Below, one piece after another: positions 2,491 through 19,591 of a stretch of 24,320 nucleotides of DNA (within the stretch, counting starts at the first letter, position 1; each line of letters begins with the position of its first letter). Location: contig NZ_NVQC01000027.1 in assembly GCF_003044035.1 (NCBI RefSeq), positions 1 through 24,320 of the forward strand, read 5' to 3'. The position numbers were made by a program, and so were the translations under genes. This DNA comes from Candidatus Methylomirabilis limnetica (GTDB lineage Bacteria; Methylomirabilota; Methylomirabilia; Methylomirabilales; Methylomirabilaceae). Under the pieces are notes generated by a model. That model was not told the origin of the DNA. It ran no database searches and saw nothing but the letters and a program-made list of their open reading frames with translations.

Positions 2491-2912
2491 TGCCGAAACA
2501 CATGAACGGTATCCAACTGATCCGAAACGGATGGTTCGTCGGCGTAGCCGGCCTGTTGTATGGCGTAGCGGTCTGGGGTAGTTTTCAATGGATCTACACG
2601 GCCGAGATCGTGCTGGAACGGCTGGAGCAGGCGGTGGAAGCGCCGGATCCGGCGGCGGCAATGCGCGTGTATGAGCAGATCGCGCGCTCGCGAGTAAGGC
2701 GGGATGATCTCGATTCCTTTGTGAAGCTCGGACAGGTCCTTGAACGGGCTGAGCGGAGGGACGCGGCGATCGAGATCTGGCGGCGCGTTGTTGCCGTGGT
2801 CCCTGAGGACGAAGGGCTGAGGATGCGACTCGCGCTAACGCTGCACAATGCAGGCCGATATGCGGAAGCAGAGCCGCACTTCGCCGCACTGCTGAGGGAG
2901 GGACCGGAATAG
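2490..2912 (+). CDS. Small membrane-anchored TPR-like repeat protein (140 aa)
   Basis: The ATG at 2490 overlaps the bcsA stop (TGATG), suggesting translational coupling. An N-terminal TM helix (WFVGVAGLLYGVAVWGSF) is followed by helical TPR-like repeats. The C-terminus LRMRLALTLHNAGRYAEAEPHFAALL is paralogous to the end of the next ORF. The longer track ORF starting at 2382 would overlap bcsA by 108 nt, so I prefer 2490. Confidence 0.7.
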   Translation: MPKHMNGIQLIRNGWFVGVAGLLYGVAVWGSFQWIYTAEIVLERLEQAVEAPDPAAAMRVYEQIARSRVRRDDLDSFVKLGQVLERAERRDAAIEIWRRVVAVVPEDEGLRMRLALTLHNAGRYAEAEPHFAALLREGPE

Positions 2913-2914
2913 GG

Positions 2915-3418
2915 ATGACCAGACACATGACGCGGTGGACAGCGATCCTGCTGGCGGTAGCGCTGATAGGTGTAGCCTTCACCGCGCTGGCTCAGGAGCG
3001 GGAGTCACGAATTGACGAGAACTTCCTCCTACTGATGGGGGCAAGGAACGCGGCGAAGTCGGGCAAGCACGACACGTCGGTGCGACGCTACCGGAGGCTA
3101 CTGGAAAGGGACCCGCGGCTCAACGACGCACGAAACGAGCTCGGATGGGTGCTGATCGCAGCCGGCAGGGTTGCAGAAGCGCAAGAGGAGTTTCGGGTAG
3201 CCCTGCATGCAAACCCCAAGGACGCGGAGGCCTGGAAGGGGATTCTGGAGGCGCTGCGGAAGACCGATCAGAAGGACGAGTTTCTGAAGGTGCTGGATCA
3301 ACTGGTTGAGCTTGAGCCTGCACGAAAGGACCTGAGGATGCAGCTTGCGCTCGAGCTCCACAACCGTGGCCGGTTTACGGAGGCCGAAAAGCACATTGTT
3401 GTGCTGCTGGGAGAGTAA
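2915..3418 (+). CDS. Secreted TPR-repeat protein (167 aa), paralog of both flanking genes
   Basis: Signal peptide (WTAILLAVALIGVAFTALAQE). The N-terminal half (LLLMGARNAAKSGKHDTSVRRYRRLL...NELGWVLIAAGRVAEAQEEF) parallels the N-terminus of the porin ORF (LLLGARNAWRLGAYEQAITRYRSAI...TELGWLLLEAERRFEALAQF). The C-terminus LRMQLALELHNRGRFTEAEKHIVVLL parallels the preceding ORF. Confidence 0.75.
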   Translation: MTRHMTRWTAILLAVALIGVAFTALAQERESRIDENFLLLMGARNAAKSGKHDTSVRRYRRLLERDPRLNDARNELGWVLIAAGRVAEAQEEFRVALHANPKDAEAWKGILEALRKTDQKDEFLKVLDQLVELEPARKDLRMQLALELHNRGRFTEAEKHIVVLLGE

Positions 3419-3432
3419 GAAAGGGGTGCCGG

Positions 3433-4953
3433 ATGCGCCACCGACTCACCGTTCGGGTCCTGATTTTGGGCGTATTCATTGCTTGGGCCGCGACCATCGC
3501 GGGGGCCCAAGAGCCCAGCGAGCGAGAGGTGTTGCTGCTTGGAGCGAGGAACGCCTGGAGGCTCGGAGCGTATGAACAGGCGATCACCAGATACCGATCG
3601 GCAATCGCGCTCGCCCCAACACAGTGGGATGCCATTACTGAGCTTGGATGGCTGTTGCTTGAGGCGGAACGTCGTTTTGAGGCTCTCGCACAATTCGAGG
3701 CTGCCGCAACGCTCGCGCCTGATGATCTCACGGTATGGCGAAACAAAGCCGGGGCGTACGGCTGGACATTCCAGCATGAGCGCGCCCTGGCCGAATTTGA
3801 TGCGATCCTCAAACGGTTTCCGGATGATGTGGCCACGGTGCTGGAACGCGACGGTAAGGCATCGTTGTGGCTGGGGCGACTGAGACGGGCCAAGACTGCT
3901 TTCGAACTACTGGCCGAGCTGGAGCCACAGAACAGCGAGGCACTGTTCGATCTGGGGCAGATCGCTACGCTGGGTGGGCGGCCATCCGAGGCGCAAGCGG
4001 CGTACCGCCAATTGATGTCCGTCGTGCCGGGACATCGGCAGGCCGAGCTGGCATTGGATCTCAGTGAACTCTCCCAACGGCCGCTTCTCACGCTTGGCTA
4101 CAACTATATAGATCAGAAGGGCTTCGATGACAAGCGGTCAATCAGGTACGGACTGGCCAGCGCAGAGGGACGAGTTCGAATGTCGGACGACGTATCGGCC
4201 CGCGTCAGGTACGAGAATGTACAGTTCCATTTCGGACGCAAACACCTGTTGACCAATGTGGGAACCGTGGGGTTGCGCTACAGTCCGAACGGCTATTTCC
4301 ATATGGATGGATTCGTGAGCGAAATCCACTATAACGAGATCGGACGGGACCGCCTTAATGTCGGCGTTGGCGTGTCGTACGAGATGCCGTCCGGAACGAG
4401 GGTGCGAGTTGACTTCGAGCGGAAGGACCTGTGGGAGAACCAGACAACCGTCCTGAATGGGATTACCGTCAATAGACTCTCGGCAAGCGTGAGCGGAGCG
4501 CTCGAACGGCGCGTCGACTGGGCGATACAAGGCAACTACGCGAACTACTCCGATAACAACACCAGGGTCGGGGGCGAGTTTCTCGCGTCGTATCGTCTAC
4601 TCTGGTTTCCGAAGGCGTTTCGTCTCATCTACCGTGTAAACGCCTACGGGTTCCAGCGAGAGCGATCGTATTTTTCGCCGGGCGCATACGCCACGAACAC
4701 GGTAGCCGTGGAGTTTCAACGCTGGTTGGGCTATCCGACGAAAGAGGACTATCTGGCGGAGGCACCGCGCAACCACTATACCGCCTATTACGGGATCTCC
4801 ATGGATAGTAACGGGAAGTTGTTTCACGAGTGGCAAGGGAAGCTCGCCTATGCGCTGGCGCGCCAACTCGATGTCGGTCTGTCGCTGAAGGCGATTCGGT
4901 CGAGCGTGTATGATGAATGGAACGCGGGGGTACTGATCGACTACAGGTTCTAA
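3433..4953 (+). CDS. Outer-membrane exopolysaccharide export protein: N-terminal TPR domain fused to a C-terminal beta-barrel (BcsC/PelB/PgaA-like or YaiO/DUF560-like)
   Basis: The signal peptide ends ..IAGAQE. About 200 aa of TPR repeats are followed by about 270 aa rich in Y/G/N/R with alternating hydrophobic residues. The terminal residue is aromatic (..VLIDYRF*), the usual OMP barrel signature. AAAGGGG RBS about 6 nt upstream. Confidence 0.75.
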   Translation: MRHRLTVRVLILGVFIAWAATIAGAQEPSEREVLLLGARNAWRLGAYEQAITRYRSAIALAPTQWDAITELGWLLLEAERRFEALAQFEAAATLAPDDLTVWRNKAGAYGWTFQHERALAEFDAILKRFPDDVATVLERDGKASLWLGRLRRAKTAFELLAELEPQNSEALFDLGQIATLGGRPSEAQAAYRQLMSVVPGHRQAELALDLSELSQRPLLTLGYNYIDQKGFDDKRSIRYGLASAEGRVRMSDDVSARVRYENVQFHFGRKHLLTNVGTVGLRYSPNGYFHMDGFVSEIHYNEIGRDRLNVGVGVSYEMPSGTRVRVDFERKDLWENQTTVLNGITVNRLSASVSGALERRVDWAIQGNYANYSDNNTRVGGEFLASYRLLWFPKAFRLIYRVNAYGFQRERSYFSPGAYATNTVAVEFQRWLGYPTKEDYLAEAPRNHYTAYYGISMDSNGKLFHEWQGKLAYALARQLDVGLSLKAIRSSVYDEWNAGVLIDYRF

Positions 4954-4971
4954 CCTTGACGGCGTGACGGT

Positions 4972-6147
4972 ATGACTAGCGGCATTTGGATCATAAGAGT
5001 AGTCGGGGTAATAAGCTTACTCGTGGTCACCTGTACGGCGTCGGCCTACGGTCCCAGGGTTGAGATCGATCCGGCGGTCGATCTGATCGCCAGGGCCTGG
5101 AGCGGGTACGGCAAGCGGTTCATTCAACAGGACGGGCGTGTCCAGCGTCCTCGGAACGGTGGGGATACGGTATCCGAGGGGCAGGCGTATGCGTTACTCA
5201 TCGCTTCGCTGCTCGACGACCGAAAGACATTCGACAGGGTATTGGACTGGACGGAACGACACCTCTCGCGGAAGGGTCGCACCGGCGACCATCTGCTTGC
5301 CTGGCATTGGGAGCCAGGCAAGGGCGTCACTGACTGGAACAGCGCGTCCGATGCCGACCTCGATTATGCCCTCGCGCTGATTACGGCCTCCGCCCGCTGG
5401 CGCGACGAGCGCTATGCCCGGAAGGCGCGATTGGTCATGAGCGATCTACTCAACCTGGAAACAGAGGTGATCAATAGGCGGAGGTATCTCATGCCTGGAA
5501 GCTGGAGAAAAGGGCGCGCCTCCTACATCATTAACCCATCCTATTCGTCGCCGGCCCACTTCCGGATATTCTTTGCGTGTACCGGAGACCCGCGTTGGAA
5601 CGACCTGATCGAGGGAAGCTACCACCTTATTGAGACAGTCTCTAAGGGCTTTGCCGGAGTCCCTGGCGTGGGGTTAGTGCCGGACTGGCTGCTCCTCACA
5701 GCGGACGGAGCCCTGATGCGCGCCACGGGATTTTCGGATCGGTTTAGCTGGGATGCCATTCGAACCCCGTGGCGACTCGGAATGGATGCGCTGTGGTTCG
5801 GGGAGGATCGGGCAAGGCAATACCTCGACGGCATGAGCGATTTTTACACGCGAGAGTGGGAGAGGCACGGTGGTCGATTCTTCGCCGAGTACACGTACGA
5901 GGGCACACCGGCCCAGAGGTATGAACGCGTAGCCGCCTATGCCATGAGCCTATCGGCGCTGGCGAGGTCGAACAGCCCTGTCTTGCCTGGCGTTCTCGTT
6001 AAGCTACGTAACGCCTTCAACAAGGAAGCGTCCCTCTTCGAAGGCAGCGACGACTACTATACGAACAGTCTCGTACTGCTTGCGCTGATCTTCTATCGCG
6101 AGGGGACACTGCCGACCCTCGATCCCAGGAATATCAGTTGCCGATGA
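4972..6147 (+). CDS. bcsZ: Glycoside hydrolase family 8 endoglucanase (BcsZ-like)
   Basis: Signal peptide present. SEGQAYALLIA matches the catalytic Glu region. ASDADLDYALALITASARW is a one-mismatch match (Y where I/M is expected) to the GH8 signature A-[ST]-D-[AG]-D-x2-[IM]-A-x-[SA]-[LIVM]-[LIVMG]-x-A-x3-[FW]. Confidence 0.85.
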   Translation: MTSGIWIIRVVGVISLLVVTCTASAYGPRVEIDPAVDLIARAWSGYGKRFIQQDGRVQRPRNGGDTVSEGQAYALLIASLLDDRKTFDRVLDWTERHLSRKGRTGDHLLAWHWEPGKGVTDWNSASDADLDYALALITASARWRDERYARKARLVMSDLLNLETEVINRRRYLMPGSWRKGRASYIINPSYSSPAHFRIFFACTGDPRWNDLIEGSYHLIETVSKGFAGVPGVGLVPDWLLLTADGALMRATGFSDRFSWDAIRTPWRLGMDALWFGEDRARQYLDGMSDFYTREWERHGGRFFAEYTYEGTPAQRYERVAAYAMSLSALARSNSPVLPGVLVKLRNAFNKEASLFEGSDDYYTNSLVLLALIFYREGTLPTLDPRNISCR

Positions 6148-12118: not shown

Positions 12119-13093
12119 TTATTGTTGGATGGCGACGGCGAACGGCATCTTCCCGACGGGGACGGTGGCGATCACCTTCTCGGTCGCGACGTCGATGACC
12201 GAAACCGCGTCGCTGCGACCACACGCAACATAAAGACGCTGCTCGTCCGGCGTAAAGGCCAGATACCAGGCCCGCTGGCCCACGGGGATCTTCTTGGTGA
12301 TGGTCAAGGTGCGGGCATTGATCACATATACGGCATTGGTCCGCCCATGCGCCACATAGAGGCGGCGGCCGTCTCGTGTCACGACCACCCCAACGGGCCG
12401 TTCGCCAACCGGGATGGTCTTGATCACCCGGTGCTTGGCCACATCAATCACCGATAAGACGCCGGGGTCGGCCTGCTCGCTTGTCACGTAGGCATATCTA
12501 CCATTCGGGCTGAAGGCAATTCCACGCGGGTTCTTCGCAACCGGGATGGCGGCCACCACCTTGAGGGCCGAGGTATCGATGACCGAGATGGTGCTAGATG
12601 TCTCGTTGGACACGTAGGCAATCTTTCCATTCGGGCTAATCGCAATCCATTCAGGCTCCACCTGGACCTCAATGGTGGCAATCACCGTACCGGTCTTAGT
12701 GTCCATCACCGTAACCGTTCCGCCGTTCTCGTTCACCGCGTACAGACGAGCCCCGTCAGGACTGAGCGCTACCCCCTCGGGATCCACCCCAGCGGGCCAC
12801 GTCGCCACAACCTTGCCGGCCTCGGCATCAATGACACTGATATCGTCGGAATTACCATTGGCAATGTACACGCGACGTCGGTCCAGCGAGATCGCGATTC
12901 CTCTCGGGCGCTTGCCAACCGGGATCGAGTTGACAACTGTATTGTTTGTGGTGTCGATGACTGAGACATCATCCGATTTCTCATTCGTCGCATAGGCCAT
13001 CGGCCCAGCCGAGGCGGCCGACGAGATATGGGCAAACCACAACAGAAGCGCCATTACAAGAGCCCACCCGCCCCGGCATCGTCCGTCTCGCAT
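12119..13093 (-). CDS. Secreted YVTN-family 7-bladed beta-propeller repeat protein
   Basis: Signal peptide (ALVMALLLWFAHISSAASA). Seven blades of about 42 aa each carry the YVxN..x..VSVID pattern: AYATNEKSDDVSVIDT, VYIANGNSDDISVIDA, LYAVNENGGTVTVMDT, AYVSNETSSTISVIDT, AYVTSEQADPGVLSVIDV, LYVAHGRTNAVYVINA and LYVACGRSDAVSVIDV. GAGGAG RBS 8 nt upstream. Confidence 0.85.
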   Translation of the reverse strand: MRDGRCRGGWALVMALLLWFAHISSAASAGPMAYATNEKSDDVSVIDTTNNTVVNSIPVGKRPRGIAISLDRRRVYIANGNSDDISVIDAEAGKVVATWPAGVDPEGVALSPDGARLYAVNENGGTVTVMDTKTGTVIATIEVQVEPEWIAISPNGKIAYVSNETSSTISVIDTSALKVVAAIPVAKNPRGIAFSPNGRYAYVTSEQADPGVLSVIDVAKHRVIKTIPVGERPVGVVVTRDGRRLYVAHGRTNAVYVINARTLTITKKIPVGQRAWYLAFTPDEQRLYVACGRSDAVSVIDVATEKVIATVPVGKMPFAVAIQQ

Positions 13094-13450: not shown

Positions 13451-13480
13451 TTGCCAGCAGGGTGCGACAGCGACTATAAT
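13451..13480 (+). promoter_or_regulatory. Candidate strong sigma70-type promoter for the peroxiredoxin gene
   Basis: TTGCCA (13451-13456), an 18-nt spacer, then consensus TATAAT (13475-13480). The predicted transcription start is around 13487, immediately before the family 4 repeat, giving a leader of about 180 nt to ATG 13665. Confidence 0.45.
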
Positions 13481-13488
13481 GCATCAAA

Positions 13489-13608
13489 CAGGTAGATAGA
13501 CTGAAGACTAAAGGCTTTTAGGGGCAGGAGACGAGAGGATCGGAAAGGGTTTGATTCGGCCTTGCGAGAGAATGTATAGCCTTCGGCCTTCAACCTAAAC
13601 ACCTGAGT
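13489..13608 (+). repeat. MITE-like / structured repeat, family 4, short copy (120 bp)
   Basis: The left arm CAGGTAGATAGACTGAAGACTAAAGGCTTTTAGGGG and the right arm TTGATTCGGCCTTGCGAGAGAATGTATAGCCTTCGGCCTTCAACCTAAACACCTGAGT match the two ends of 18675..18874 in the same orientation. The arms are imperfect inverted repeats of each other. Confidence 0.65.
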
Positions 13609-13664
13609 CGTGACAATCATCGTATCGATACCATGGAATTAACCCACACAAACACGGAGGAGTG

Positions 13665-14267
13665 ATGAGCGTACTCGTTGGTAAGTTCGCACCCGATTTT
13701 ACTGTAACCGCCGTCATGCCGGATGGCAGCTTCAAAGATAACTTTATGTTGGCCGACTACAAGCACACCAAGTATGTTGTGCTCTTCTTCTATCCCCTCG
13801 ATTTTACCTTCGTCTGCCCTTCAGAGATTATCGCCTTTGACCACCGCGTGGCTGAGTTCAACAAGCGCGGCGTACAGGTTGTCGGTTGCTCCGTAGATTC
13901 ACAGTTCACCCATTCCGCATGGCGCGGCACCCCTGTCAATAAGGGGGGCATCGGTCCGGTCGGCTATCCACTGATAGCTGACCTTAAAAAGGAATTCGCT
14001 TGCGCATACGACGTACTGCTGTCGGGCGGAGTGGCCCTGCGCGGATCCTTCCTGATCGACAAACACGGCATCGTCCAGCACCAGGTTATCAACAACCTGC
14101 CGCTCGGGCGCAATGTGGATGAGATGCTTCGCATGGTGGATGCGCTCCAGTTCCACGAGGCCCATGGAGAGGTCTGCCCAGCCGGATGGACAAAGGGGGC
14201 CAAGGGAATGCAACCTAACGCCGAGGGTGTTGCAAGCTACCTGACCAGCGAGGCTGCAAAGCTGTAA
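13665..14267 (+). CDS. Typical 2-Cys peroxiredoxin (AhpC/Prx1 family)
   Basis: FTFVCPSEI peroxidatic-Cys motif and EVCPAGW resolving-Cys motif, 200 aa. GGAGGA RBS at 13656-13661. I prefer ATG 13665 over the track's GTG 13662. Confidence 0.9.
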   Translation: MSVLVGKFAPDFTVTAVMPDGSFKDNFMLADYKHTKYVVLFFYPLDFTFVCPSEIIAFDHRVAEFNKRGVQVVGCSVDSQFTHSAWRGTPVNKGGIGPVGYPLIADLKKEFACAYDVLLSGGVALRGSFLIDKHGIVQHQVINNLPLGRNVDEMLRMVDALQFHEAHGEVCPAGWTKGAKGMQPNAEGVASYLTSEAAKL

Positions 14268-14411
14268 GGATCATGGTGATTGGGGTGGTCGCGCCATGCA
14301 GGTTAGGATTTCCGCCTGCGCCGGCCACCCTAGACTTCCTTGTGCGACGGTATAACCCTGCCCTTCCTCGTTATTCGGTCGCCACCTACCTGTAAGGTAA
14401 ACCTCAGGCTG

Positions 14412-15878
14412 ATGCGGTACACCGAATTTCATTCCGGCTTTATCTGGGCATCGTTGACAACGGCGATCGTCGCGGGATTTGCGTTCGGCGCCTACCTGGC
14501 TGTGGTCATTGGCTACGGCTTTCCCGTGGGGCAGGGATTCTACTCCCTTATCCAGACACACGGGCATCTGCAACTCGTTGGCTGGGTAGGGCTATTTATC
14601 ATGGGCGTCAGCCTTCATTTCATTCCCCGGCTGGCCAGCTTCCCCATTCCTCACCCCGAACGGATGAACCGGATTCTTTGGTTGATGGCTCCTGGGCTCC
14701 TCCTCCGGGCGGTCGGAGGGACGGTCCTAGCCTACATCGAGGGTAGTCCGATCTTCGTTCCTCTGAGTTGGCTGGTAGTTGCCTCGGGGGTACTGGAAGG
14801 AGGCGCGATTATCCTGTACGTGTCACTCCTAATTGAAACCATACGCGGAAGCGATAAGGCCAGAAGGCTTCCAGCGTTGAGCGCGGTCAAACCGTATTTC
14901 GGCATGATGGCGGTCGGCTGGGTCCTCTATGCGTGTCTCAATCTGTTCTTGGTGCTTCATATGGCGCTGAACAGTACTACTACCGTGGACACCGCCTGGA
15001 ATGAGTTTGCCAATACCACCTTCATGAGTCTCGTGCTCCTGCCTGTGGCCTTCGCCCTTTCGGTTCGCCTCTTTCCGCTGTACCTGGCCTTGCCGGCTCC
15101 GGATTGGCCGGTCTTCGGGACAGGATACGCGTATCTCCTGGCTGTATTCCTGCAAGTGGTCCCCGCGGCGCCTCCCCTGGCAGGACTCGCGCCGGAGGCC
15201 ACCAGGTTGGTTGTCGCCCTGGGAACGCTACTGAAGGGGGGCGTTATCCTCTGGTTCGTGTGGCAACTGGATCTACTCACTCGCCGCCGGCCCCTAGGTC
15301 GCCATGCCCGCTTTCTGGATACTGGGCCGGATCGCCCGCCCACGCGACCGGGCTTACCGGATTATGGAGAGTTTGGCCGATTCGAACGCCTGGTCTACGC
15401 CGCCTACACGTGGCTTGTCCTTGCCGCGTTCGTCGAACTCCTTTGCGGTGCTGCAATCTTGTTAGGCTATTCGATCTCGATCGGCACAGACGCGATCCGT
15501 CATATGTATCTACTCGGCTTCATCACCCACCTCATTTTCGGCGCGTCCGTCCGTATGCTGCCTGGCTTCCTGAGGAAGAAACGTGTGGCCAGTACCTCGT
15601 TAGTTGACACCACCTTTTGGTTGGGCAGTACGGCGGCGGTTTGTCGCGTGGTGCCATTACTTCTGCCATCTTGGCTATTTGACGAGCTTCCTGCTGGCGT
15701 CATGCTTACCCAAACTGCCTTTGCGATCTCAGGATTACTCGGGTGGGGAGCCGTCCTGTGCCTCGCGATGAATTTGCGCCAGACTCAAAGTAATTGCTAT
15801 CAGGAAGCAACTGGACAACGTCCCCCGGCTGGTCGCGGTCCGGGAAATGCCCTGACAGAGGGTTATCGTGAGCGCTGA
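14412..15878 (+). CDS. nnrS: NnrS-like polytopic membrane protein (about 12 TM helices; putative heme/copper NO-response protein)
   Basis: Highly hydrophobic, with about 12 helices. The His-containing motifs THGHLQLVGWVGLFIMGVSLHFIPR (early helix) and IRHMYLLGFITHLIFGASVRMLPGF (late helix) resemble the NnrS H-x-H-E-M-x-F-G-F signature and its pseudo-repeat. It is a clear paralog of the core of 16878..18707 (AHGHAQVFGFAALFIMGVAYHVIPRF / GRHAFTLGFLTQIVVGVAARLIPVF). The start is placed at ATG 14412; the track's 14340 is a TTG with a non-hydrophobic extension. The RBS is weak. Confidence 0.7.
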   Translation: MRYTEFHSGFIWASLTTAIVAGFAFGAYLAVVIGYGFPVGQGFYSLIQTHGHLQLVGWVGLFIMGVSLHFIPRLASFPIPHPERMNRILWLMAPGLLLRAVGGTVLAYIEGSPIFVPLSWLVVASGVLEGGAIILYVSLLIETIRGSDKARRLPALSAVKPYFGMMAVGWVLYACLNLFLVLHMALNSTTTVDTAWNEFANTTFMSLVLLPVAFALSVRLFPLYLALPAPDWPVFGTGYAYLLAVFLQVVPAAPPLAGLAPEATRLVVALGTLLKGGVILWFVWQLDLLTRRRPLGRHARFLDTGPDRPPTRPGLPDYGEFGRFERLVYAAYTWLVLAAFVELLCGAAILLGYSISIGTDAIRHMYLLGFITHLIFGASVRMLPGFLRKKRVASTSLVDTTFWLGSTAAVCRVVPLLLPSWLFDELPAGVMLTQTAFAISGLLGWGAVLCLAMNLRQTQSNCYQEATGQRPPAGRGPGNALTEGYRER

Positions 15879-15980
15879 ACTGGACTTCATTAGTGGTTAT
15901 ATGGAGCGAGTCAACCCTGGCAACCAAGGGGTGTGCGGGGCCACGCGGAGCAGGAGAAGTAAAAGGGAGGTCATAAAAGC

Positions 15981-16445
15981 ATGAGGGCAATATTGATCGG
16001 AATCTGTGTGGGCGCGGTGGGAATGATCGCCATCGGGTTCTTCGGTAGCTCCGCTGCCGCCCCACCCCACGAATCCTCAACCGACACGCGGCAACGGCTG
16101 ATTTTTGCCCCTACCCAGCGAGACATGATGCTTACCGAGATGCGTCAGATGCTCGGGTCTGTTAGCGGGATCGTACAGGGCCTGGCGGCCAATGATCTCC
16201 CTGCGGCGGAGAAGGCAGCCCGCGCGGCTGGCATGATGCACGCAGCCGACGTTGATCCACAGATCCAGAAACTGCTTCCCCAACAGTTCCTGGGGCTGGC
16301 AATGCAAACTCACATGGGGTTCGACAAACTTGCCGACCAGATTAAAGCCGGTAATAGCCGTGATGACACCCTCCGCGGGCTCGCGACGCTGACAGGCAAC
16401 TGCATGGCCTGTCACGCCATGTACCGGCTCGACGAAGCACGCTAA
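15981..16445 (+). CDS. cycP: Cytochrome c' (class II c-type cytochrome, four-helix-bundle type)
   Basis: A signal/anchor peptide (ILIGICVGAVGMIAIGFFGSSAAA) is followed by a helical mature part of about 125 aa. A single CxxCH lies near the C-terminus in LATLTGNCMACHAMYRLDEAR. That is the class II cytochrome c pattern, comparable to ..GGTCKACHDDYR.. in Rhodobacter cytochrome c'. GGGAGG RBS about 10 nt upstream. Confidence 0.75.
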   Translation: MRAILIGICVGAVGMIAIGFFGSSAAAPPHESSTDTRQRLIFAPTQRDMMLTEMRQMLGSVSGIVQGLAANDLPAAEKAARAAGMMHAADVDPQIQKLLPQQFLGLAMQTHMGFDKLADQIKAGNSRDDTLRGLATLTGNCMACHAMYRLDEAR

Positions 16446-16482
16446 TCATATACTTTCTTCCGGGTTTTCCGTGGGTACCCTG

Positions 16483-16532
16483 ACCTTCCAGCATCCCCTC
16501 CCCCCACCGAGGGGGAGGGCGCGGGTGGGGGG
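16483..16532. repeat. G/C-tract hairpin repeat, family 1, truncated copy 3
   Basis: ACCTTCCAGCATCC-[CCTCCCCC caccga GGGGGAGG]-GCGCGGGTGGGGGG. It has the same left arm, first hairpin and right G-run as copies 1 and 2 but lacks the second hairpin. Confidence 0.6.
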
Positions 16533-16656
16533 CTTCAAAGCAAGACACATCGAAAAAAGTCACCGCCATTGCTTAAAGTCGCCTTCGATCTGGCGCCAAG
16601 AACTGGATATAGCCATTCGGATCGGCTCAGTGCCTGCTTACGTCTTCACGTTCCCC

Positions 16657-16685
16657 TTGACCTCCCCTGCCGCTTCAGCTATATT
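16657..16685 (+). promoter_or_regulatory. Candidate strong sigma70-type promoter for the ScdA_N-NnrS-DUF1858 gene
   Basis: TTGACC (16657-16662), a 17-nt spacer, then TATATT (16680-16685). It is followed by a leader of about 185 nt before ATG 16878. Confidence 0.45.
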
Positions 16686-16877
16686 TTTTGACAGGCAGGA
16701 GTGGAGCCGCCACATTGGCGCGGGGCCCTCACCTGGGCCCTCAGACCCTACACAAGCGGTCTGATGCGCCGCCAATCTGCCCCTTAGAAGCTTTCCAATT
16801 TCTTCCTTTGAGGTAGGTTGGCGTAGTGGGTGACGTATGCCCAGTCATTGTATAGATTTTGCACGATGAGCCGGTAA

Positions 16878-18707
16878 ATGGGCGCACACCAGTTCACGAG
16901 TGCAACGACGGTTGACGATGTCGTGCATGTTAACCCGGCTCTCAGCCGGATCCTGAATACGCACGGGATCGACACATGCTGCGGGGGTAGTGCCACGCTC
17001 GCCGAGGCCGCACACGTGCGCGGCATCGATCTCGGCGCGTTGCTCGCGAGTTTGAACCGAGAAGGCGAGCCGCGTAAACAAACCGCTGCCATCGCGACAG
17101 AGCCTGCGGGCCGTTGCGTCGCACCCGCTTGTGAGGTATCGGCCCCATCTGCGTACCCACCACGCGTGGCTGTCATAGTTCCCGCAGTTCCACGGCCGAC
17201 GCGCTACGTCCGGTTCTTCACTGCCAGCTTGTTCTTTGCGCTCACCTTCGGTAGTACGCTCGGCGCGTTGACGCTCGCCACCCTCACGCTTCCCTGGAAC
17301 TTCCTCGGTGGACTGCCGACGGCCTCTGCCAAAGTGGCGCACGGACACGCGCAAGTCTTCGGTTTCGCCGCCTTGTTTATCATGGGCGTCGCCTACCATG
17401 TCATTCCGCGCTTCAAGGGGGCGCCGCTTGCCGCACCGGGCGTGGCCTCGGCGTCATTCTGGTTGCAAGTGGGTGGCGTACTGGCTGTCGCCGTCGGCCT
17501 GCTCGTCGGACCGCCGGTGGTTGGGCCAATGCGATTCATGGGGGCCATTGCGCTGCTTACGGCGGCGTTGAGTTTCGGATGGGTCGTACATCATAGCTTG
17601 GCTGCCGGTGCGCCGACAACCGAGCGCTTCGAGCGCTATCTACGCGCCGGATGTGCATGGCTGGCGGTTGCGGCCGCATTAGCCGTCGCCACGGCGGCCG
17701 GCATTGATCCGCTCCAACCGGTGGTATGGGAGGCGGCGCTGTGGGGTTTCGCGGCCTCGTGGATCCTCGGCATGAGTTTGCGCATCGTGCCGGTCTTCCT
17801 GGGCCTGCTACCGTCACCTCAACGCGGAAGCAGCGCGCTGTTCGCCGGCTATCAACTGGCCGTGTTGGCATGGGTGATCATATCCGTCATTGAAGTGTGG
17901 ACACTGCTTCCAATCGCGCGCGCACTTGCCGGGGTAGCGCTGGCGCTCGCGGCTGGAGCATTCGTCCTGCGGCTTGGCATCCTCGGGCCGTGGGAGAGTC
18001 AGGGTAAAGTGGGCGACCGTGGCTACGAAAAGTTTATGGTCGTCGCCTATGCATGGTTGATTGTCGCGCTCGTATGTGTACCCGCTTGGAGGGCGGCGAC
18101 GGCACTCGTAGGCAGCCCTATGCCCGCGCTGGTCCTGGACTTCGGTCGCCACGCGTTCACTCTCGGATTTCTGACGCAGATTGTCGTTGGTGTCGCCGCG
18201 CGCCTCATCCCGGTATTTGCCGGCACGCCACTATGGAGCAAGGGTTGGCGCGACGTCACCTTCTATCTGCTCAACGCGGCAGTGGTGGCGCGCGGTCTCG
18301 AGGTGCTGGTTGAGGTCGTCGGCCTGTCCGGCGTATGGCCATACATCTCCCTCTCCGGTCTACTGGGCGTGGGCGCATTTGCCGCTTTTACTGCAAACGT
18401 ATTCATGACCGTACGTGCGCGTCCGCCTGCCGTGGCGCCCACACCGGAAGAGGGAGAATCGATGGCGGACAACGTCGTCGCCGATATCCTTACCATCCCG
18501 GGCGCCCTCGAGCTGCTCGTGAGCCGCGGTTTACGCCCGCTCCAGAACCCGGAAATGCGCGCGGCGATGGCCCCCACTGTGACGCTGCGACAGGCGTGCC
18601 GGATTCATAGCATCGAGATTGAACCGCTGCTGGCCGAGCTGTCCAAGCTGGCGGCGATGTCGCGTGGTAACACTCAGGTAGATAGACTGAAGGCTGAAGG
18701 CTTTTAG
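16878..18707 (+). CDS. Three-part fusion protein: N-terminal ScdA_N (DUF542, RIC/YtfE N-domain-like), a 12-TM NnrS-like core and a C-terminal DUF1858 domain
   Basis: The N-terminus TTVDDVVHVNPALSRILNTHGIDTCCGGSATLAEAAHVRGIDLGALLASLN fits the ScdA_N pattern (..P....vf...giDfCCgG..tL.ea....g.d...ll..L). I count 12 hydrophobic helices, carrying the NnrS-like motifs AHGHAQVFGFAALFIMG and GRHAFTLGFLTQIVVG. The C-terminus VVADILTIPGALELLVSRGLRPLQNPEMRAAMAPTVTLRQACRIHSIEIEPLLAELSKL fits DUF1858 (L.nP.mR......Tl.qAa...g.....Ll..L). The last roughly 11 codons and the TAG stop (18705-18707) lie inside repeat 18675..18874. Confidence 0.75.
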   Translation: MGAHQFTSATTVDDVVHVNPALSRILNTHGIDTCCGGSATLAEAAHVRGIDLGALLASLNREGEPRKQTAAIATEPAGRCVAPACEVSAPSAYPPRVAVIVPAVPRPTRYVRFFTASLFFALTFGSTLGALTLATLTLPWNFLGGLPTASAKVAHGHAQVFGFAALFIMGVAYHVIPRFKGAPLAAPGVASASFWLQVGGVLAVAVGLLVGPPVVGPMRFMGAIALLTAALSFGWVVHHSLAAGAPTTERFERYLRAGCAWLAVAAALAVATAAGIDPLQPVVWEAALWGFAASWILGMSLRIVPVFLGLLPSPQRGSSALFAGYQLAVLAWVIISVIEVWTLLPIARALAGVALALAAGAFVLRLGILGPWESQGKVGDRGYEKFMVVAYAWLIVALVCVPAWRAATALVGSPMPALVLDFGRHAFTLGFLTQIVVGVAARLIPVFAGTPLWSKGWRDVTFYLLNAAVVARGLEVLVEVVGLSGVWPYISLSGLLGVGAFAAFTANVFMTVRARPPAVAPTPEEGESMADNVVADILTIPGALELLVSRGLRPLQNPEMRAAMAPTVTLRQACRIHSIEIEPLLAELSKLAAMSRGNTQVDRLKAEGF

Positions 18708-18874
18708 GGGTAAATCATGCGTGATCACACAAAACCGGGCATTTGAGGTGGCTGATGGAGTAGCAATGTCGGTTTATCGGGTTGAACTAAAGATCGTAGA
18801 AACTGAGAAGGTCTTGAATAGCTTGATTCGTGCCTTGCGAGATAATTTAGAGCCTTCAGCCTAAACACCTGAGT
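18675..18874 (+). repeat. MITE-like / structured repeat, family 4, long copy (200 bp)
   Basis: The left arm is (ACT)CAGGTAGATAGACTGAAGGCTGAAGGCTTTTAGGGG. The right arm is TTGATTCGTGCCTTGCGAGATAATTTAGAGCCTTCAGCCTAAACACCTGAGT. The reverse complement of the right end (ACTCAGGTGTTTAGGCTGAAGGCT) matches the left end (ACTCAGGT...GCTGAAGGCT), so the termini are inverted repeats. Both ends are shared with 13489..13608, but the interior differs. Confidence 0.65.
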
Positions 18875-18896
18875 AGTTATATCGCGTGACGTATTA

Positions 18897-18961
18897 GAGA
18901 TGGACACAACCGTTATGAGCATGGATAAGAGGAGGATACAACCGTTATGAGCATGGATAAG
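18897..18961 (+). repeat. 32-nt tandem duplication of the translation-initiation region of the downstream gene
   Basis: GACACAACCGTTATGAGCATGGATAAG (18903-18929) and GATACAACCGTTATGAGCATGGATAAG (18935-18961) match at 26 of 27 positions with a 32-nt period. The preceding bases are also related: AGAGATG before unit 1 and AGAGGAG before unit 2, the latter being the better RBS. Confidence 0.8.
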
Positions 18962-19591
18962 CCGACGTCACGTGAACAATTCACACTTTCGTTGCGGGTA
19001 CGTCCGGAACCGATTATGGTGCGCGACCCCTTTCTCGAATTCTTGGGATTAGTCGGTCCTGAGGAGCCGATCGCGGTCGGCTTTGAAGAGTTGGTCAAGG
19101 CGGCGGGCCATATGTGTCCGACTGTAGCGGGCGCGTATCTCGTCTTGCGGCATGGGCTTAAAGCCCTGTACGGTGATGAGCCGGCCGTCCGCGGCAACGT
19201 ACAGGTGACGGCCTACGGCGGACCTACGGATTTCGGGTATGGGCCGATCTCGCAACTGGTGAACCTGGTCATCGGCGCCGCGTCTGAGACCGGTTTTGGG
19301 GGGTTGGGGGGCGGGCGCTTTCGCCGACGCGACCTCTTCGTCTTTCGGAGCGATGATCTGCGCCATAGCGAGTTCGACTTTGCGCGCCTCGATACCGGGC
19401 GCTCTGTCCATGTCACGTACGATCCGGGGGTGGTGCCGACACCTAAAGATCTCTCAGCAGCCATCGGCCCCGCGCTCTCTAACGGTGATGCCGCCTCGGT
19501 AGCTCGTTTCCGCAGCCTCTGGAATGGGCGCGTAGAAGACATCCTCGAGGCCGACGCGCGCGCCGTTCGCATCCAGCCCGCCGGCTCATAG
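18947..19591 (+). CDS. Hypothetical protein, possibly an FmdE-like domain (214 aa)
   Basis: GAGGAGGA RBS about 8 nt upstream of ATG 18947, and coding-like codon usage throughout. VKAAGHMCPTVAGAYLVLRHGLKAL resembles the GH-x-CP-G-x-x-x-G motif of FmdE-family proteins. There is no C-terminal Cys-rich zinc ribbon. The functional call is weak. Confidence 0.65.
   Translation: MSMDKPTSREQFTLSLRVRPEPIMVRDPFLEFLGLVGPEEPIAVGFEELVKAAGHMCPTVAGAYLVLRHGLKALYGDEPAVRGNVQVTAYGGPTDFGYGPISQLVNLVIGAASETGFGGLGGGRFRRRDLFVFRSDDLRHSEFDFARLDTGRSVHVTYDPGVVPTPKDLSAAIGPALSNGDAASVARFRSLWNGRVEDILEADARAVRIQPAGS

Follow-up and report, generated by a model that had tools for sequence, protein, structure and literature searches.

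The five genes at positions 13,451 to 19,591 of the window (the whole stretch of DNA that was analysed, 24,320 nucleotides) are best explained as a chromosomal block, organised as two transcription units, of a bacterium of the Methylomirabilis type (NC10). The conserved core of this block is an undescribed haem-type membrane protein with two cysteine-domain caps (ORF4), together with a small metal-binding-type partner (ORF5). This core was found beside known nitric-oxide (NO) defence genes in many bacterial phyla, and the present host, a methane oxidiser, lives on NO. We see about an even chance that the block acts as a membrane NO-protection module with a thiol relay, in which ORF4 and ORF5 form one complex. 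The five genes are co-directional on the + strand, as the earlier note on this DNA said. Unit 1 would run from promoter P1 and comprise prx (ORF1), ORF2 and ORF3, while unit 2, the evolutionarily conserved part of the block, would run from promoter P2 and comprise ORF4 and ORF5. The features are as follows.

12119-13093, - strand: YVTN propeller, divergent neighbour
13451..13480, + strand: P1, sigma-70-type promoter TTGCCA-18-TATAAT upstream of prx (scan 11/12)
13489..13611, + strand: MITE-like repeat, short copy (aligns to the long copy), within the 5' leader of prx
13662/13665-14267, + strand: ORF1, typical 2-Cys peroxiredoxin (AhpC/Prx1 type), cytoplasmic, from Pfam and motifs
14340-15878 (start probably 14412), + strand: ORF2, divergent 12-TM membrane protein of the NnrS superfamily, from COX1, hhalign, AF2 and Foldseek
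15981..16445, + strand: ORF3, exported or anchored class II c-type cytochrome (four-helix-bundle type), from a weak PF01322 match and the family profile
16497..16520, + strand: putative G+C-rich hairpin CCCCTCCCCC-ACCGA-GGGGGAGGG after the ORF3 stop, read from the sequence
16657..16685, + strand: P2, sigma-70-type promoter TTGACC-17-TATATT upstream of ORF4 (scan 10/12)
16878..18707, + strand: ORF4, fusion of ScdA_N, NnrS core and DUF1858 (three Pfam domains), 609 aa
16905..17060, + strand: ORF4 ScdA_N domain with vicinal Cys34-Cys35 (DTCCGG), residues 10-61, PF04405 E 4.3e-16
17205..18422, + strand: ORF4 NnrS-type 12-TM core, residues 128-509 (PF05940), from alignment to the ORF2 12-TM model
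18477..18629, + strand: ORF4 C-terminal DUF1858 domain, residues 534-584, PF08984 E 2.1e-12
18667..18888, + strand: long copy of the MITE-like repeat at the ORF4 3' end, TIR CTCAGGT/ACCTGAG
18947..19591, + strand: ORF5, divergent FmdE-fold protein with invariant AGHxCP and TGFGGLG, from fold and intermediate sequences

The fusion proposed for ORF4 is real, since all three Pfam domains exceeded their gathering scores (ScdA_N 58.7, NnrS 39.4 and DUF1858 47.4 bits). No description of this architecture was found in the literature searched. It is not rare, being the commonest form in its clade (38 of the 78 sampled species-level genomes (cores), in many phyla). In the family alignment H155, H174, H425 and C574 were invariant and C34 and H577 nearly so, and none of the three invariant histidines fell within TM6 or TM7. 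Across the wider NnrS-type family only two histidines were universal, one in TM2 and one in TM10; the family matched qNOR with an hhalign E of 0.01-0.07, at which these two residues cannot be equated by sequence with the haem ligands of heme-copper oxidases (HCO). The ScdA_N domain is probably cytoplasmic, and the predicted topology would give ORF4 related cysteine domains, ScdA_N and DUF1858, at its cytoplasmic ends. A DUF1858 gene that stands alone depends strongly on NnrR (PMC6710368). NO regulons have dnrN/ytfE and nnrS among their core members, and the literature describes NnrS as a membrane protein of the heme-copper kind (PMC1274295). 

The gene neighbourhoods of the ORF4 family were counted at 66 non-NC10 loci. 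RIC (ScdA_N plus hemerythrin) lay within 5 kb at 16 of them, and the other recurrent neighbours were Crp/Fnr (12), hemerythrin (10+6), radical SAM (9), MFS (7), qNOR (7), Rrf2 (6) and Mo-oxidoreductase (6). In the fusion-bearing genomes RIC/YtfE, hemerythrins, Rrf2, Crp/Fnr, σ54 activators, qNOR and NarK-like genes adjoined repeatedly. These neighbourhoods, spread over many phyla, lend independent support to the NO link for the ORF4 family.

ORF4 followed by ORF5 is a unit conserved across lineages, the two genes being adjacent in NC10, Binatia and Poribacteria and at L003. ORF5 lay downstream of ORF4 at L001, L003, L005, L006 and L013, and about ten more pairs of homologs had both members on contigs of equal length. 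In Binatia the two are fused in P0045 (829 aa), in which residues 622-823 share 73% identity with ORF5. Most ORF4-family loci have no ORF5, which is thus not essential to the family, and no NnrS linkage was found for more distant FmdE relatives. The linkage of prx, ORF2 and ORF3 was genus-specific and consequently gives no independent functional evidence.

It is very unlikely that the block is a chance neighbourhood of unrelated housekeeping and stress genes in one genus, with the NO theme an artefact of annotation names. The five-gene order occurred only among close relatives, along with unrelated flanks (rpe-fba-glpX and Lnb), Prx is a general peroxidase, and ORF3 and ORF5 fell below Pfam thresholds. 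However, ORF4 and ORF5 repeatedly adjoin each other in different phyla and also occur fused into one gene, which already largely refutes this explanation for these two genes; the frequency of RIC near ORF4 is far above chance, and ORF2 and ORF4 are paralogs 1 kb apart.

The NO-protection reading was also weighed against an NO/redox sensor, in which the NnrS-type core detects NO and the Cys domains and ORF5 signal to transcription factors with no protective chemistry. At L003, L005, L006 and L022, PAS-sigma54 activators, canonical -24/-12 promoters and palindromic sites were found upstream of ORF4, and the Binatia-type ORF4-ORF5 loci lie directly 3' of such an activator and its promoter. Rrf2 and Crp/Fnr regulators are common beside the ORF4 family, and ORF2-family genes often adjoin histidine kinases and response regulators. 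We nevertheless regard a sensor as improbable: ORF4, ORF5 and the 829-aa fusion have no output domain (kinase, HTH or cyclase), adjoining regulators more simply regulate the gene itself, and ScdA_N is an electron relay within an enzyme (PMC9052748). The window is without any regulator, and neither a regulator nor an operator of NO-responsive type was detected in it.

The promoters in the window, moreover, look constitutive. The two near-consensus promoters of the earlier note were found at their positions and are conserved; the scan by itself was not significant, because three promoter-like sites were observed in the region against 2.8 in shuffles. P1 and P2 are the best-conserved blocks of their own intergenic spacers in Methylomirabilis contigs, the spacers otherwise ranging from 120 to 675 bp. 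The -35/-10 block of P1 was kept in L002, L084, L086, L087 and L114 despite indels immediately downstream, and P2 was kept in all seven aligned Methylomirabilis contigs, including those with spacers reduced to 120-140 bp. The ORF4 loci of relatives have σ54 promoters in place of the sigma-70-type ones.

An exact 18-mer of the short copy of the MITE-like repeat is found again at position 18675, giving 2 matches where 0.01 would be expected, and the short copy is missing in L086 and L114. The long copy, a 222-bp repeat that contains a strong hairpin and is flanked by a 7-bp duplication (tcgcgtg at 18660-18666 and 18882-18888), is missing in all five aligned relatives. Its insertion alters the C-terminal residues of ORF4 (609 aa vs 598 aa), so that 240 bp instead of 28-42 bp now lie between ORF4 and ORF5, and it may disturb the co-expression of the two genes. 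Apart from the window, only L082 and L083 had the putative hairpin after ORF3.

ORF1 was confirmed as a 2-Cys peroxiredoxin by Pfam (AhpC-TSA E 1.8e-33, 1-cysPrx_C E 1.8e-11), by a 281-bit match to PRK15000 and by the FVCP and VCPAGW motifs in its translation, from which the typical 2-Cys type follows. A GGAGG conserved in Methylomirabilis contigs stands 5 nt upstream of its ATG.

ORF2 probably starts at the ATG at 14412, because its homologs have 470-490 aa. Its sole Pfam match was COX1 (38.3 bits vs a gathering score of 34.8) and Pfam NnrS gave no match, so that its naming as NnrS holds at the level of the superfamily: ORF2 aligned to the ORF4 family over 399 columns with an hhalign probability of 99.9% (E 9e-35), and the two are divergent NnrS paralogs as proposed. 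In its AF2 model (pTM 0.82) the top 37 Foldseek PDB matches were all HCO/NOR subunit I, with TM 0.62-0.69 to cbb3 CcoN and cNOR NorB. Only H50, H52, H69 and H364 are invariant histidines in its family. Over its full length ORF2 is a paralog within the NnrS superfamily; it has the fold of heme-copper-oxidase subunit I and lacks the catalytic set of histidines.

The ORF3 sequence has a C-terminal CMACH motif, and Met54 is invariant. Its Cytochrom_C_2 (PF01322) score of 19.5 bits was below the gathering score of 26.5, and 28 of 30 family members gave weak matches; the family profile matched b562 (E 5e-5) and Rps. palustris cytochrome c' (E 3e-4). Judged by the invariant Met at the distal/axial position, the haem may be six-coordinate. 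Because of this Met and the sub-threshold score, a classic NO-binding cytochrome c' is not established.

The fold of ORF2, its passing COX1 score and the adjoining c-type cytochrome gene would suit a catalytic heme-copper enzyme, a minimal NO reductase or dismutase in which electrons pass from ORF3 to ORF2 and from thiols to ORF4, in a host that relies on NO turnover (PMC6094997). Such an enzyme is highly improbable, since the ORF2 and ORF4 families have not kept the six histidines that ligate the low-spin haem and the binuclear centre. Moreover, NnrS of V. cholerae does not clear NO, its effect being to shield the iron pool against the formation of DNICs (PMC9246220), and Methylomirabilis already has NOD, qNOR, sNOR and gNOR (PMC6094997).

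For ORF5, the FmdE-like assignment held by fold and intermediate sequences (37-45% identity to PF02663-bearing proteins) and not by Pfam score (14.3 bits, E 0.044). The AF2 model had a pLDDT of 92, and its significant PDB fold matches were FmdE structures only (2gvi, 2glz and 3d00). The FmdE core binds its metal by FHGHxC plus a Cys (PMC2954224), and ORF5 retains one His and one Cys, half the ligands.

A role unspecific for NO would be the traffic or insertion of Cu, Fe or haem destined for membrane enzymes, among them the many heme-copper enzymes of the host. Genes of the FmdE family commonly lie close to metal-ion transporters, with Zn/Ni bound by the FmdE core (PMC2954224), CopD-like and chlorite-dismutase/HemQ-family genes recur at ORF2-family loci, and NnrS is reported to contain haem and copper (PMC1274295). 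We hold this role to be unlikely, as the recurrent ORF4-family neighbours are NO-specific (RIC, qNOR, Rrf2 and hemerythrins) rather than metal transporters or HCO operons, half of the metal site is lost in ORF5, and the window has no HCO, NOD or transporter gene.

The guess that the host is a nitrite- or NO-metabolising autotroph was right. Named Methylomirabilis genomes carry ORF4 homologs at 77-81% identity, and in this organism NO is an obligate intermediate and CO2 is fixed via the CBB cycle (PMC6094997). Synteny of the full five-gene block plus flanks is confined to close Methylomirabilis relatives, beyond which only ORF4-ORF5 stays paired, so the five genes are not one conserved unit. 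An island of acquired DNA is likewise unsupported, because the rpe-fba-glpX and Lnb flanks are syntenic, no tRNA or integrase was found at the block in the window, and the composition is unremarkable. The YVTN neighbour is a propeller (best match TIGR03866, PQQ-associated propeller, 284 bits vs a cutoff of 287), and its link to cd1 found no support. Overall, the earlier interpretation was partly upheld: the NO link, the host and the fusion stood, and the five-gene unit, the island, the classic cytochrome c' and the cd1 link did not find support.

In the membrane NO-protection module, ORF4 and ORF5 would form one complex guarding the cell against NO. The membrane core of ORF4 would bind NO, or accept electrons, where NO is most concentrated, and its cytoplasmic thiol domains would work with ORF5 at the inner face as an electron relay and/or in handling labile metal (iron-nitrosyl species). 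Less of the cytoplasmic iron would then be nitrosylated, an effect that has been reported for NnrS of Vibrio cholerae. In unit 1, electron exchange is probable between ORF3 and a bis-His haem that the TM2 and TM10 histidines would hold near the outer face of ORF2. Since NO is always present as an intermediate in the metabolism of Methylomirabilis, the protection module would there be run from conserved sigma-70-type promoters, and in relatives under NO-type inducible control.

Compared with known systems, ORF5 has the fold of FmdE but lacks half of its metal ligands, and the NnrS-type core of ORF4 has the fold of heme-copper oxidases but lacks the catalytic binuclear-centre histidines. In YtfE the vicinal pair Cys30/Cys31 of ScdA_N delivers electrons to the metal centre and caps an NO channel (PMC9052748), and Cys34-Cys35 of ORF4 is its equivalent. 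ORF4 would in effect be a membrane-anchored counterpart of RIC/YtfE, with an NnrS core in place of the hemerythrin domain.

The candidate NO-handling block of the earlier note was confirmed with several corrections, and the explanation that fitted best is that ORF4-ORF5 would form a membrane-anchored analogue of RIC, the protein that combines ScdA_N with hemerythrin. The five co-directional ORFs claimed for the + strand were present between 13.6 and 19.6 kb of the window. Pfam and NCBIfam scans of the window proteins gave the following identifications for these ORFs and for the divergent neighbour of prx.

12119-13093, minus strand: YVTN beta-propeller with signal peptide; best match TIGR03866, 284 bits against a cutoff of 287
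13665-14267, plus strand: ORF1, typical 2-Cys peroxiredoxin (AhpC/Prx1); AhpC-TSA with E 1.8e-33, and 1-cysPrx_C
14340-15878 (probable start ATG 14412), plus strand: ORF2, divergent NnrS-type protein; COX1 38.3 bits against a gathering score of 34.8
15981-16445, plus strand: ORF3, c-type cytochrome; Cytochrom_C_2 (PF01322) 19.5 bits against a gathering score of 26.5
16878-18707, plus strand: ORF4, ScdA_N-NnrS-DUF1858 fusion; all three domains above gathering score
18947-19591, plus strand: ORF5, FmdE-like protein; FmdE (PF02663) 14.3 bits against 22.9, E 0.044

The peroxiredoxin call for ORF1 was borne out by the AhpC-TSA and C-terminal Prx domains and by the FVCP and VCPAGW motifs, the translation having its peroxidatic Cys in FTFVCPSE and its resolving Cys in GEVCPAGW, as in typical 2-Cys peroxiredoxins. 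The start of ORF2 was probably the later ATG, since its homologs are 470-490 aa long. The YVTN gene had been weakly linked to cd1 nitrite reductase, which was not supported: its best model, TIGR03866, is the "PQQ-dependent catabolism-associated beta-propeller", and profile scans of the propeller found nothing that ties it to cd1 nitrite reductase maturation. The gene also partly matched hydrazine synthase beta and lactonase-type NosZ models. At the left end of the window, a cellulose-synthase-like operon (244-6147, plus strand) comprised a GT2 and PilZ protein (244-2490), three TPR proteins and a GH8 glycosyl hydrolase (4972-6147); beyond it, on the minus strand, come an M48 peptidase and then CBB-type rpe, class II fba and glpX.

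Homologs of ORF4 were 77-81% identical in Ca. Methylomirabilis oxyfera/oxygeniifera, M. lanthanidiphila and other MAGs of the NC10 lineage, and 92% identical on metagenome contigs; the homologs of ORF2 and ORF5 followed the same pattern. In the metagenome contigs L084, L086 and L087, the entire left flank (rpe, fba, glpX, a 180-aa ORF, a SCO4226-like gene and the YVTN propeller) and the right flank (an Lnb-like gene) were collinear with the window. Because of these identities and the conserved flank order, the window is, as judged from sequence, core chromosome of a Methylomirabilis-type bacterium. The term island, in the sense of acquired DNA, was therefore rejected: the flanks are syntenic, the composition is unremarkable, and the tRNA scan detected no tRNA. 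The window also gave no match in an Rfam scan. The speculation that the host is a nitrite- or NO-metabolizing autotroph was right, given the homolog identities and the metabolism described for the genus, in which nitrite is reduced to NO, NO is thought to be dismutated to N2 and O2, and CO2 is fixed via the CBB cycle (PMC6094997). That comparative genomic study lists NOD, qNOR, sNOR, gNOR and Cco, with no mention of the genes studied here. Some local variation was observed as well: 1.8-2.4 kb of extra sequence separates the YVTN gene from prx in L086 and L087, and in the compared locus L002 about 1.9 kb (3385-5285) lies between prx and ORF2 and contains a DUF488 gene (3543-3968).

The window proteins were compared by tblastn and HMM searches with 78 genome loci carrying ORF4 relatives and 80 metagenome loci carrying ORF2 relatives. 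The five genes did not prove to be a conserved neighborhood, as their complete order was restricted to close Methylomirabilis relatives. Outside NC10, no Prx, ORF3-like or ORF5-like gene was found by these searches near ORF2-family genes, the single exception being an ORF3-like gene in L089, encoded on the opposite strand. The sole linkage that persisted beyond the close relatives was ORF4->ORF5. This pair occurred in L003 (ORF5 at 69% identity), in Binatia (L005 and L006) and in Poribacteria (L013), and about ten more pairs of ORF4 and ORF5 homologs were matched through contigs of identical length. Moreover, the Binatia protein P0045 (829 aa) contains ORF4 and ORF5 in one chain, its residues 622-823 being 73% identical to ORF5. 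Chance adjacency, by which the genes would merely happen to be neighbors, fits less well than the RIC-like explanation of ORF4-ORF5.

The ScdA_N-NnrS-DUF1858 fusion proposed for ORF4 is real. Its core scored 39.4 bits against PF05940 (gathering score 28), and its N-terminal ScdA_N domain (PF04405, E 4.3e-16) carries the vicinal Cys motif DTCCGG, of which C34 is present in at least 90% of sequences. The Pfam scan gave no match to the hemerythrin domain PF01814 in ORF4, and TIGR03652 was matched over only its first 57 positions. In a census of 78 NnrS-type cores from species-representative genomes, 35 had both an N-domain and a C-domain, 17 an N-domain only, 3 a C-domain only and 3 a doubled N-domain, while 20 were bare. 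The fusion is old and widespread, with occurrences in NC10, Binatia, Acidobacteriota, Planctomycetota, Armatimonadota, Gemmatimonadota, Poribacteria, Tectomicrobia and others. Neither the fusion nor the presence of these genes in NC10 was described in the literature that could be searched. The homologs with a doubled N-domain (L010, L012 and L016) carry two tandem ScdA_N/DUF1858-type domains, and come from two Acidobacteriota MAGs and a MAG of Candidatus Scalindua, an anammox bacterium; NO is an intermediate in anammox bacteria too.

The ORFs within 5 kb of ORF4-family genes were then clustered in 66 non-NC10 loci, and the recurrent clusters were annotated with Pfam. The commonest neighbor was RIC, present in 16 of the 66, followed by Crp/Fnr regulators (12), two clusters of hemerythrin-only proteins (10 and 6), radical SAM proteins (9), NarK-like MFS proteins and qNOR (7 each), and Rrf2 regulators and molybdopterin oxidoreductases (6 each). 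These cross-phylum neighborhoods are independent evidence by which the predicted membership of the ORF4 family in NO defence was strengthened. The NO interpretation gained strength for ORF4-ORF5 and is a candidate reading for ORF1-ORF2-ORF3 (unit 1).

The FmdE-like assignment of ORF5 was upheld at the level of fold, with a Pfam score below the gathering score and half of the metal site. The close homologs of ORF5 have no Pfam domain, and among those at 37-45% identity many contain PF02663 and are annotated as FmdE family proteins. Since sequence searches of PDB chains with the ORF2 and ORF5 family profiles returned no meaningful matches, fold comparison was used for both proteins. The ORF5 model was confident (pLDDT 92), and its only significant Foldseek matches in the PDB were the FmdE structures 2GVI, 2GLZ and 3D00 (E 1.2e-4 to 3.6e-4, probability 1.00). 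The canonical FmdE metal site consists of FHGHxC and a distal Cys (PMC2954224). In the ORF5 family a remnant AGHxC is left (H55 and C57), the first His being replaced by Ala53 and the second invariant Cys being absent, and therefore the family keeps half an FmdE metal site compared with two His and two Cys. Metal or cofactor trafficking as the role of the NnrS-type proteins and ORF5 fits less well than the RIC-like explanation. More distant FmdE relatives, in Sulfurimonas (L079) and a deltaproteobacterial MAG (L080), showed no NnrS linkage at their loci; from the loci compared, NnrS linkage is specific to the ORF5 subfamily.

The two divergent NnrS paralogs of the earlier note stood at the superfamily level: in the Pfam scan ORF2 had no PF05940 match and matched only COX1. 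Alignment of the ORF2 family (A2) with the ORF4 family (A1) by hhalign gave a probability of 99.9% (E 8.8e-35, 399 columns), so that the two are homologous across the whole core. A few ORF2 homologs carry PF05940, and in the JGI annotation ORF2 homologs bear the COG name of NnrS, "involved in response to NO". Because of this alignment and these few homologs, and with its own PF05940 match absent, we assigned ORF2 to NnrS at the superfamily level only. The AF2 model of ORF2 (pLDDT 79, pTM 0.82) has twelve long helices, with which the ORF4 core was collinear in profile alignment. All of the top 37 Foldseek matches in the PDB were catalytic subunits (subunit I) of heme-copper oxidases (HCO) and NO reductases (NOR), including cbb3 CcoN (E 6.5e-9, TM 0.66-0.69) and cNOR NorB (TM 0.62-0.67). 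The COX1 (PF00115) score, above threshold in ORF2, was only 21.4 bits in ORF4.

HCO and NOR proteins have six conserved His, one in TM2, one in TM6, two in TM7 and two in TM10, which bind the low-spin heme and the binuclear centre. The invariant His were H50, H52, H69 and H364 in the ORF2 family and H155, H174 and H425 in the ORF4 family, and neither family has one in TM6 or TM7. Therefore the ligand set of the binuclear centre, which defines oxidases and NORs, is absent, and ORF2 was not filed as either. A catalytic NO enzyme, for which the shared fold might speak, fits less well than the RIC-like explanation. Among plainer NnrS proteins, universal conservation is limited to the His of TM2 and the "RH" His of TM10. 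From helix boundaries and the positive-inside rule, we inferred that the TM2 and TM10 His lie near the outer face, suited to one predicted bis-His heme, and that H69/H174 would lie near the inner face. Profile-profile alignment of the ORF2 and ORF4 families with qNOR from the loci was not significant (E 0.01-0.07) and was ambiguous, the TM2 "HGH" being paired with either the TM10 "HGH" or the TM2 His of qNOR; for this reason no equivalence of heme ligands to qNOR is claimed.

Other features of the ORF2 family were also observed. The cytoplasmic TM8-TM9 loop (window 15277-15378, ORF2 residues about 289-322) contains a nearly invariant signature, PTRPGLPDYGEFGRFE, conserved above most of the membrane helices, and its ORF4 counterpart GYEKF is weaker. 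Outside NC10, a gene of the chlorite-dismutase family (PF06778) and small CopD/DUF4149 membrane proteins recurrently adjoin ORF2-family genes, as do histidine kinase/response regulator pairs (L090, L091, L103, L129 and L145, also L073; L089, L124 and L143). HtrA is a further neighbor of ORF2-family genes, and this context is unlike that of the ORF4 family.

The call of ORF3 as cytochrome c' held in its CxxCH motif and its profile similarity to c' and b562, and fell short in its PF01322 score. The family comprised 867 relatives at E ≤ 0.001 among 50%-identity representatives, with M54, P100, H111, C141, C144 and H145 invariant. PF01322 was weakly matched by 28 of 30 members (best E 8.6e-6), and the family profile gave matches along almost the entire length to cytochrome b562 (E 5e-5) and to Rps. 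palustris cytochrome c' (E 3e-4). By these profiles ORF3 is a class II four-helix c-type cytochrome with a predicted N-terminal signal or anchor. Since the invariant Met54 aligns with the distal/axial position of the Rps. palustris protein, a six-coordinate electron carrier with Met/His ligation is no less likely than a five-coordinate, NO-binding c'.

Two promoters had been proposed. Both exist as motifs, P1 at 13451-13480 (11/12) and P2 at 16657-16685 (10/12); the promoter scan by itself was not statistically significant, with a count of 3 versus 2.8 in shuffles, and footprinting alone supports them. When the spacers were aligned across Methylomirabilis contigs, TTGCCA-18-TATAAT and TTGACC-17-TATATT were the best-conserved blocks, a result that held also for contigs in which the ORF3-ORF4 spacer has contracted from 675 to 120 bp. 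On account of this conservation P1 and P2 are taken as real, predicted promoters of two transcription units, ORF1-ORF2-ORF3 and ORF4-ORF5. The two spacers of the window showed neither a sigma54 promoter nor an obvious palindromic operator, and there is no regulator gene in the window. Elsewhere, in the ORF4-ORF5-type loci L003, L005, L006 and L022, a gene for a PAS-sigma54 activator lies immediately upstream of the ORF4 homolog, and canonical -24/-12 promoters (TGGYACG-N4-CTGC) stand 20-30 bp before it (L003 3305, L005 2396, L006 9971 and L022 9876), with TGTCTC...GAGACA palindromes farther upstream. The activator has a CGHGC motif in its PAS region. A sensor role for the block fits less well than the RIC-like explanation. 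The apparent change from inducible control elsewhere (sigma54, Rrf2 and Crp/Fnr) to conserved sigma-70-type promoters in the block offers a mark of permanent exposure to NO that can be tested.

A MITE-like repeat, whose terminal inverted repeats are CTCAGGT/ACCTGAG, was observed within the block in a long (18667-18888) and a short (13489-13611) copy, and as a fragment between ORF5 and Lnb in L002 (10118-10143). The long copy (222 bp, predicted fold -66.9 kcal/mol) is inserted at the 3' terminus of ORF4, together with a target duplication of 7 bp, tcgcgtg, and is missing from all aligned relatives. It alters the C-terminal residues of ORF4 (609 aa versus 598 aa), and with it the distance between ORF4 and ORF5 grows to 240 bp, compared with 28-42 bp in relatives. 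The short copy, which lacks about 85 bp, lies in the 5' leader of prx and is missing in L086 and L114. In addition, a 32-bp tandem duplication spans the start of ORF5 (about 18905-18970), where acaaccgttATGAGCATGGATAAG is present in two copies; of the two ATG codons, the one at 18915 leads into a dead-end frame of 11 codons, and the one at 18947 is preceded by AGGAGG. It is shared by the window, L082 and L084, and is not found in L001, L002 and L086.

Published work on the separate parts bears on how such proteins might act. The vicinal Cys30/Cys31 of ScdA_N pass electrons to the di-iron site of YtfE and cap a hydrophobic NO channel (PMC9052748), and in Bradyrhizobium a stand-alone DUF1858 gene is among the most strongly NnrR-dependent genes (PMC6710368). 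NnrS has been described as heme- and copper-binding, and dnrN/ytfE and nnrS as two hypothetical core members of NO regulons (PMC1274295). In V. cholerae, NnrS does not remove NO and shields the iron pool from dinitrosyl-iron complexes (PMC9246220). In ORF4, a dnrN module that keeps its Cys-Cys at 34/35 is joined to an nnrS core. In the membrane-anchored analogue of RIC, a heme-bearing NnrS core would sit in the membrane, its inner face served by two thiol domains and an FmdE-fold partner, which might relay electrons and/or handle labile metal, with less iron nitrosylation as the outcome. As a variant, the ScdA_N domain of ORF4 might dock a separate hemerythrin protein; hemerythrin genes lie downstream of ORF5 in L005 and L006. 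In unit 1, Prx would contribute the removal of peroxide and peroxynitrite, and the second NnrS-type protein, ORF2, might be served from the periplasm by the ORF3 cytochrome.

We consider it unlikely that ORF4-ORF5, and in NC10 also ORF2-ORF3, represent an unrecognized class of redox enzymes derived from the HCO fold that processes NO-derived species. Such an enzyme would connect a single membrane heme with vicinal-thiol domains in the cytoplasm and with a composite metal site of His and Cys shared by the FmdE-like protein (H55 and C57) and DUF1858 (C574 and H577). Its substrates, for example dinitrosyl-iron complexes or S-nitrosothiols, would be met at the inner membrane face, and in Methylomirabilis it would be constitutive and integral to an NO-dismutating life. 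If true, this would finally supply a mechanism for NnrS, which has been a core NO-regulon member for over twenty years and for which, to our knowledge, no mechanism is established.

In many phyla, an NnrS core with the HCO fold carries in the same chain the Cys domain by which RIC/YtfE relays electrons, as well as a second Cys domain; in one clade its partner is an FmdE-fold protein, at times within a single fusion. Such fusions in nature show the partners of the NnrS core and give concrete residues to mutate. The host here, a methanotroph of the NC10 lineage, lives on NO and O2 that it generates internally and must avoid poisoning itself.

Compared with known systems, ORF2 and ORF4 share the 12-TM topology, the TM2 His and the TM10 "RH" His with NnrS (PF05940/COG3213) of Rhodobacter sphaeroides and V. 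cholerae (VC2330). ORF2 differs in being too divergent for PF05940, in its extra invariant His (HGH) and in its strongly conserved DYGEFGRFE cytoplasmic loop. The characterized NnrS proteins are bare membrane cores, whereas ORF4 adds ScdA_N, DUF1858 and an FmdE-like partner that is sometimes fused; and while the NnrS family occurs in NO regulons with regulators nearby, the window has sigma-70-type promoters and no NO regulator. With subunit I of HCO and NOR (cbb3 CcoN, cNOR NorB and qNOR), ORF2 has in common the 12-helix fold (TM about 0.62-0.69), but it lacks the canonical six-His set, and homologs of subunit II, NorC and CcoO are absent. ORF3 resembles the class II cytochromes c (c' and c-556) and b562 in its C-terminal CxxCH, its length and a profile similarity over nearly the whole protein, and departs from cytochrome c' in scoring below the PF01322 threshold and in the invariance of Met54 and His111. 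ORF5 shares the core fold and the GHxCP motif with FmdE, without the zinc-finger C-domain and the distal Cys ligand, and is linked or fused to an NnrS-type protein instead of to formylmethanofuran dehydrogenase or metal transporters. Finally, ORF4 and the RIC/YtfE/ScdA/DnrN proteins have the ScdA_N Cys-Cys pair at a nearly equal position (C34/C35 versus C30/C31 in YtfE); ORF4 has no hemerythrin/di-iron domain and carries a related second Cys domain, DUF1858, at the opposite end, and the NnrS membrane core would be its metal-centre partner.
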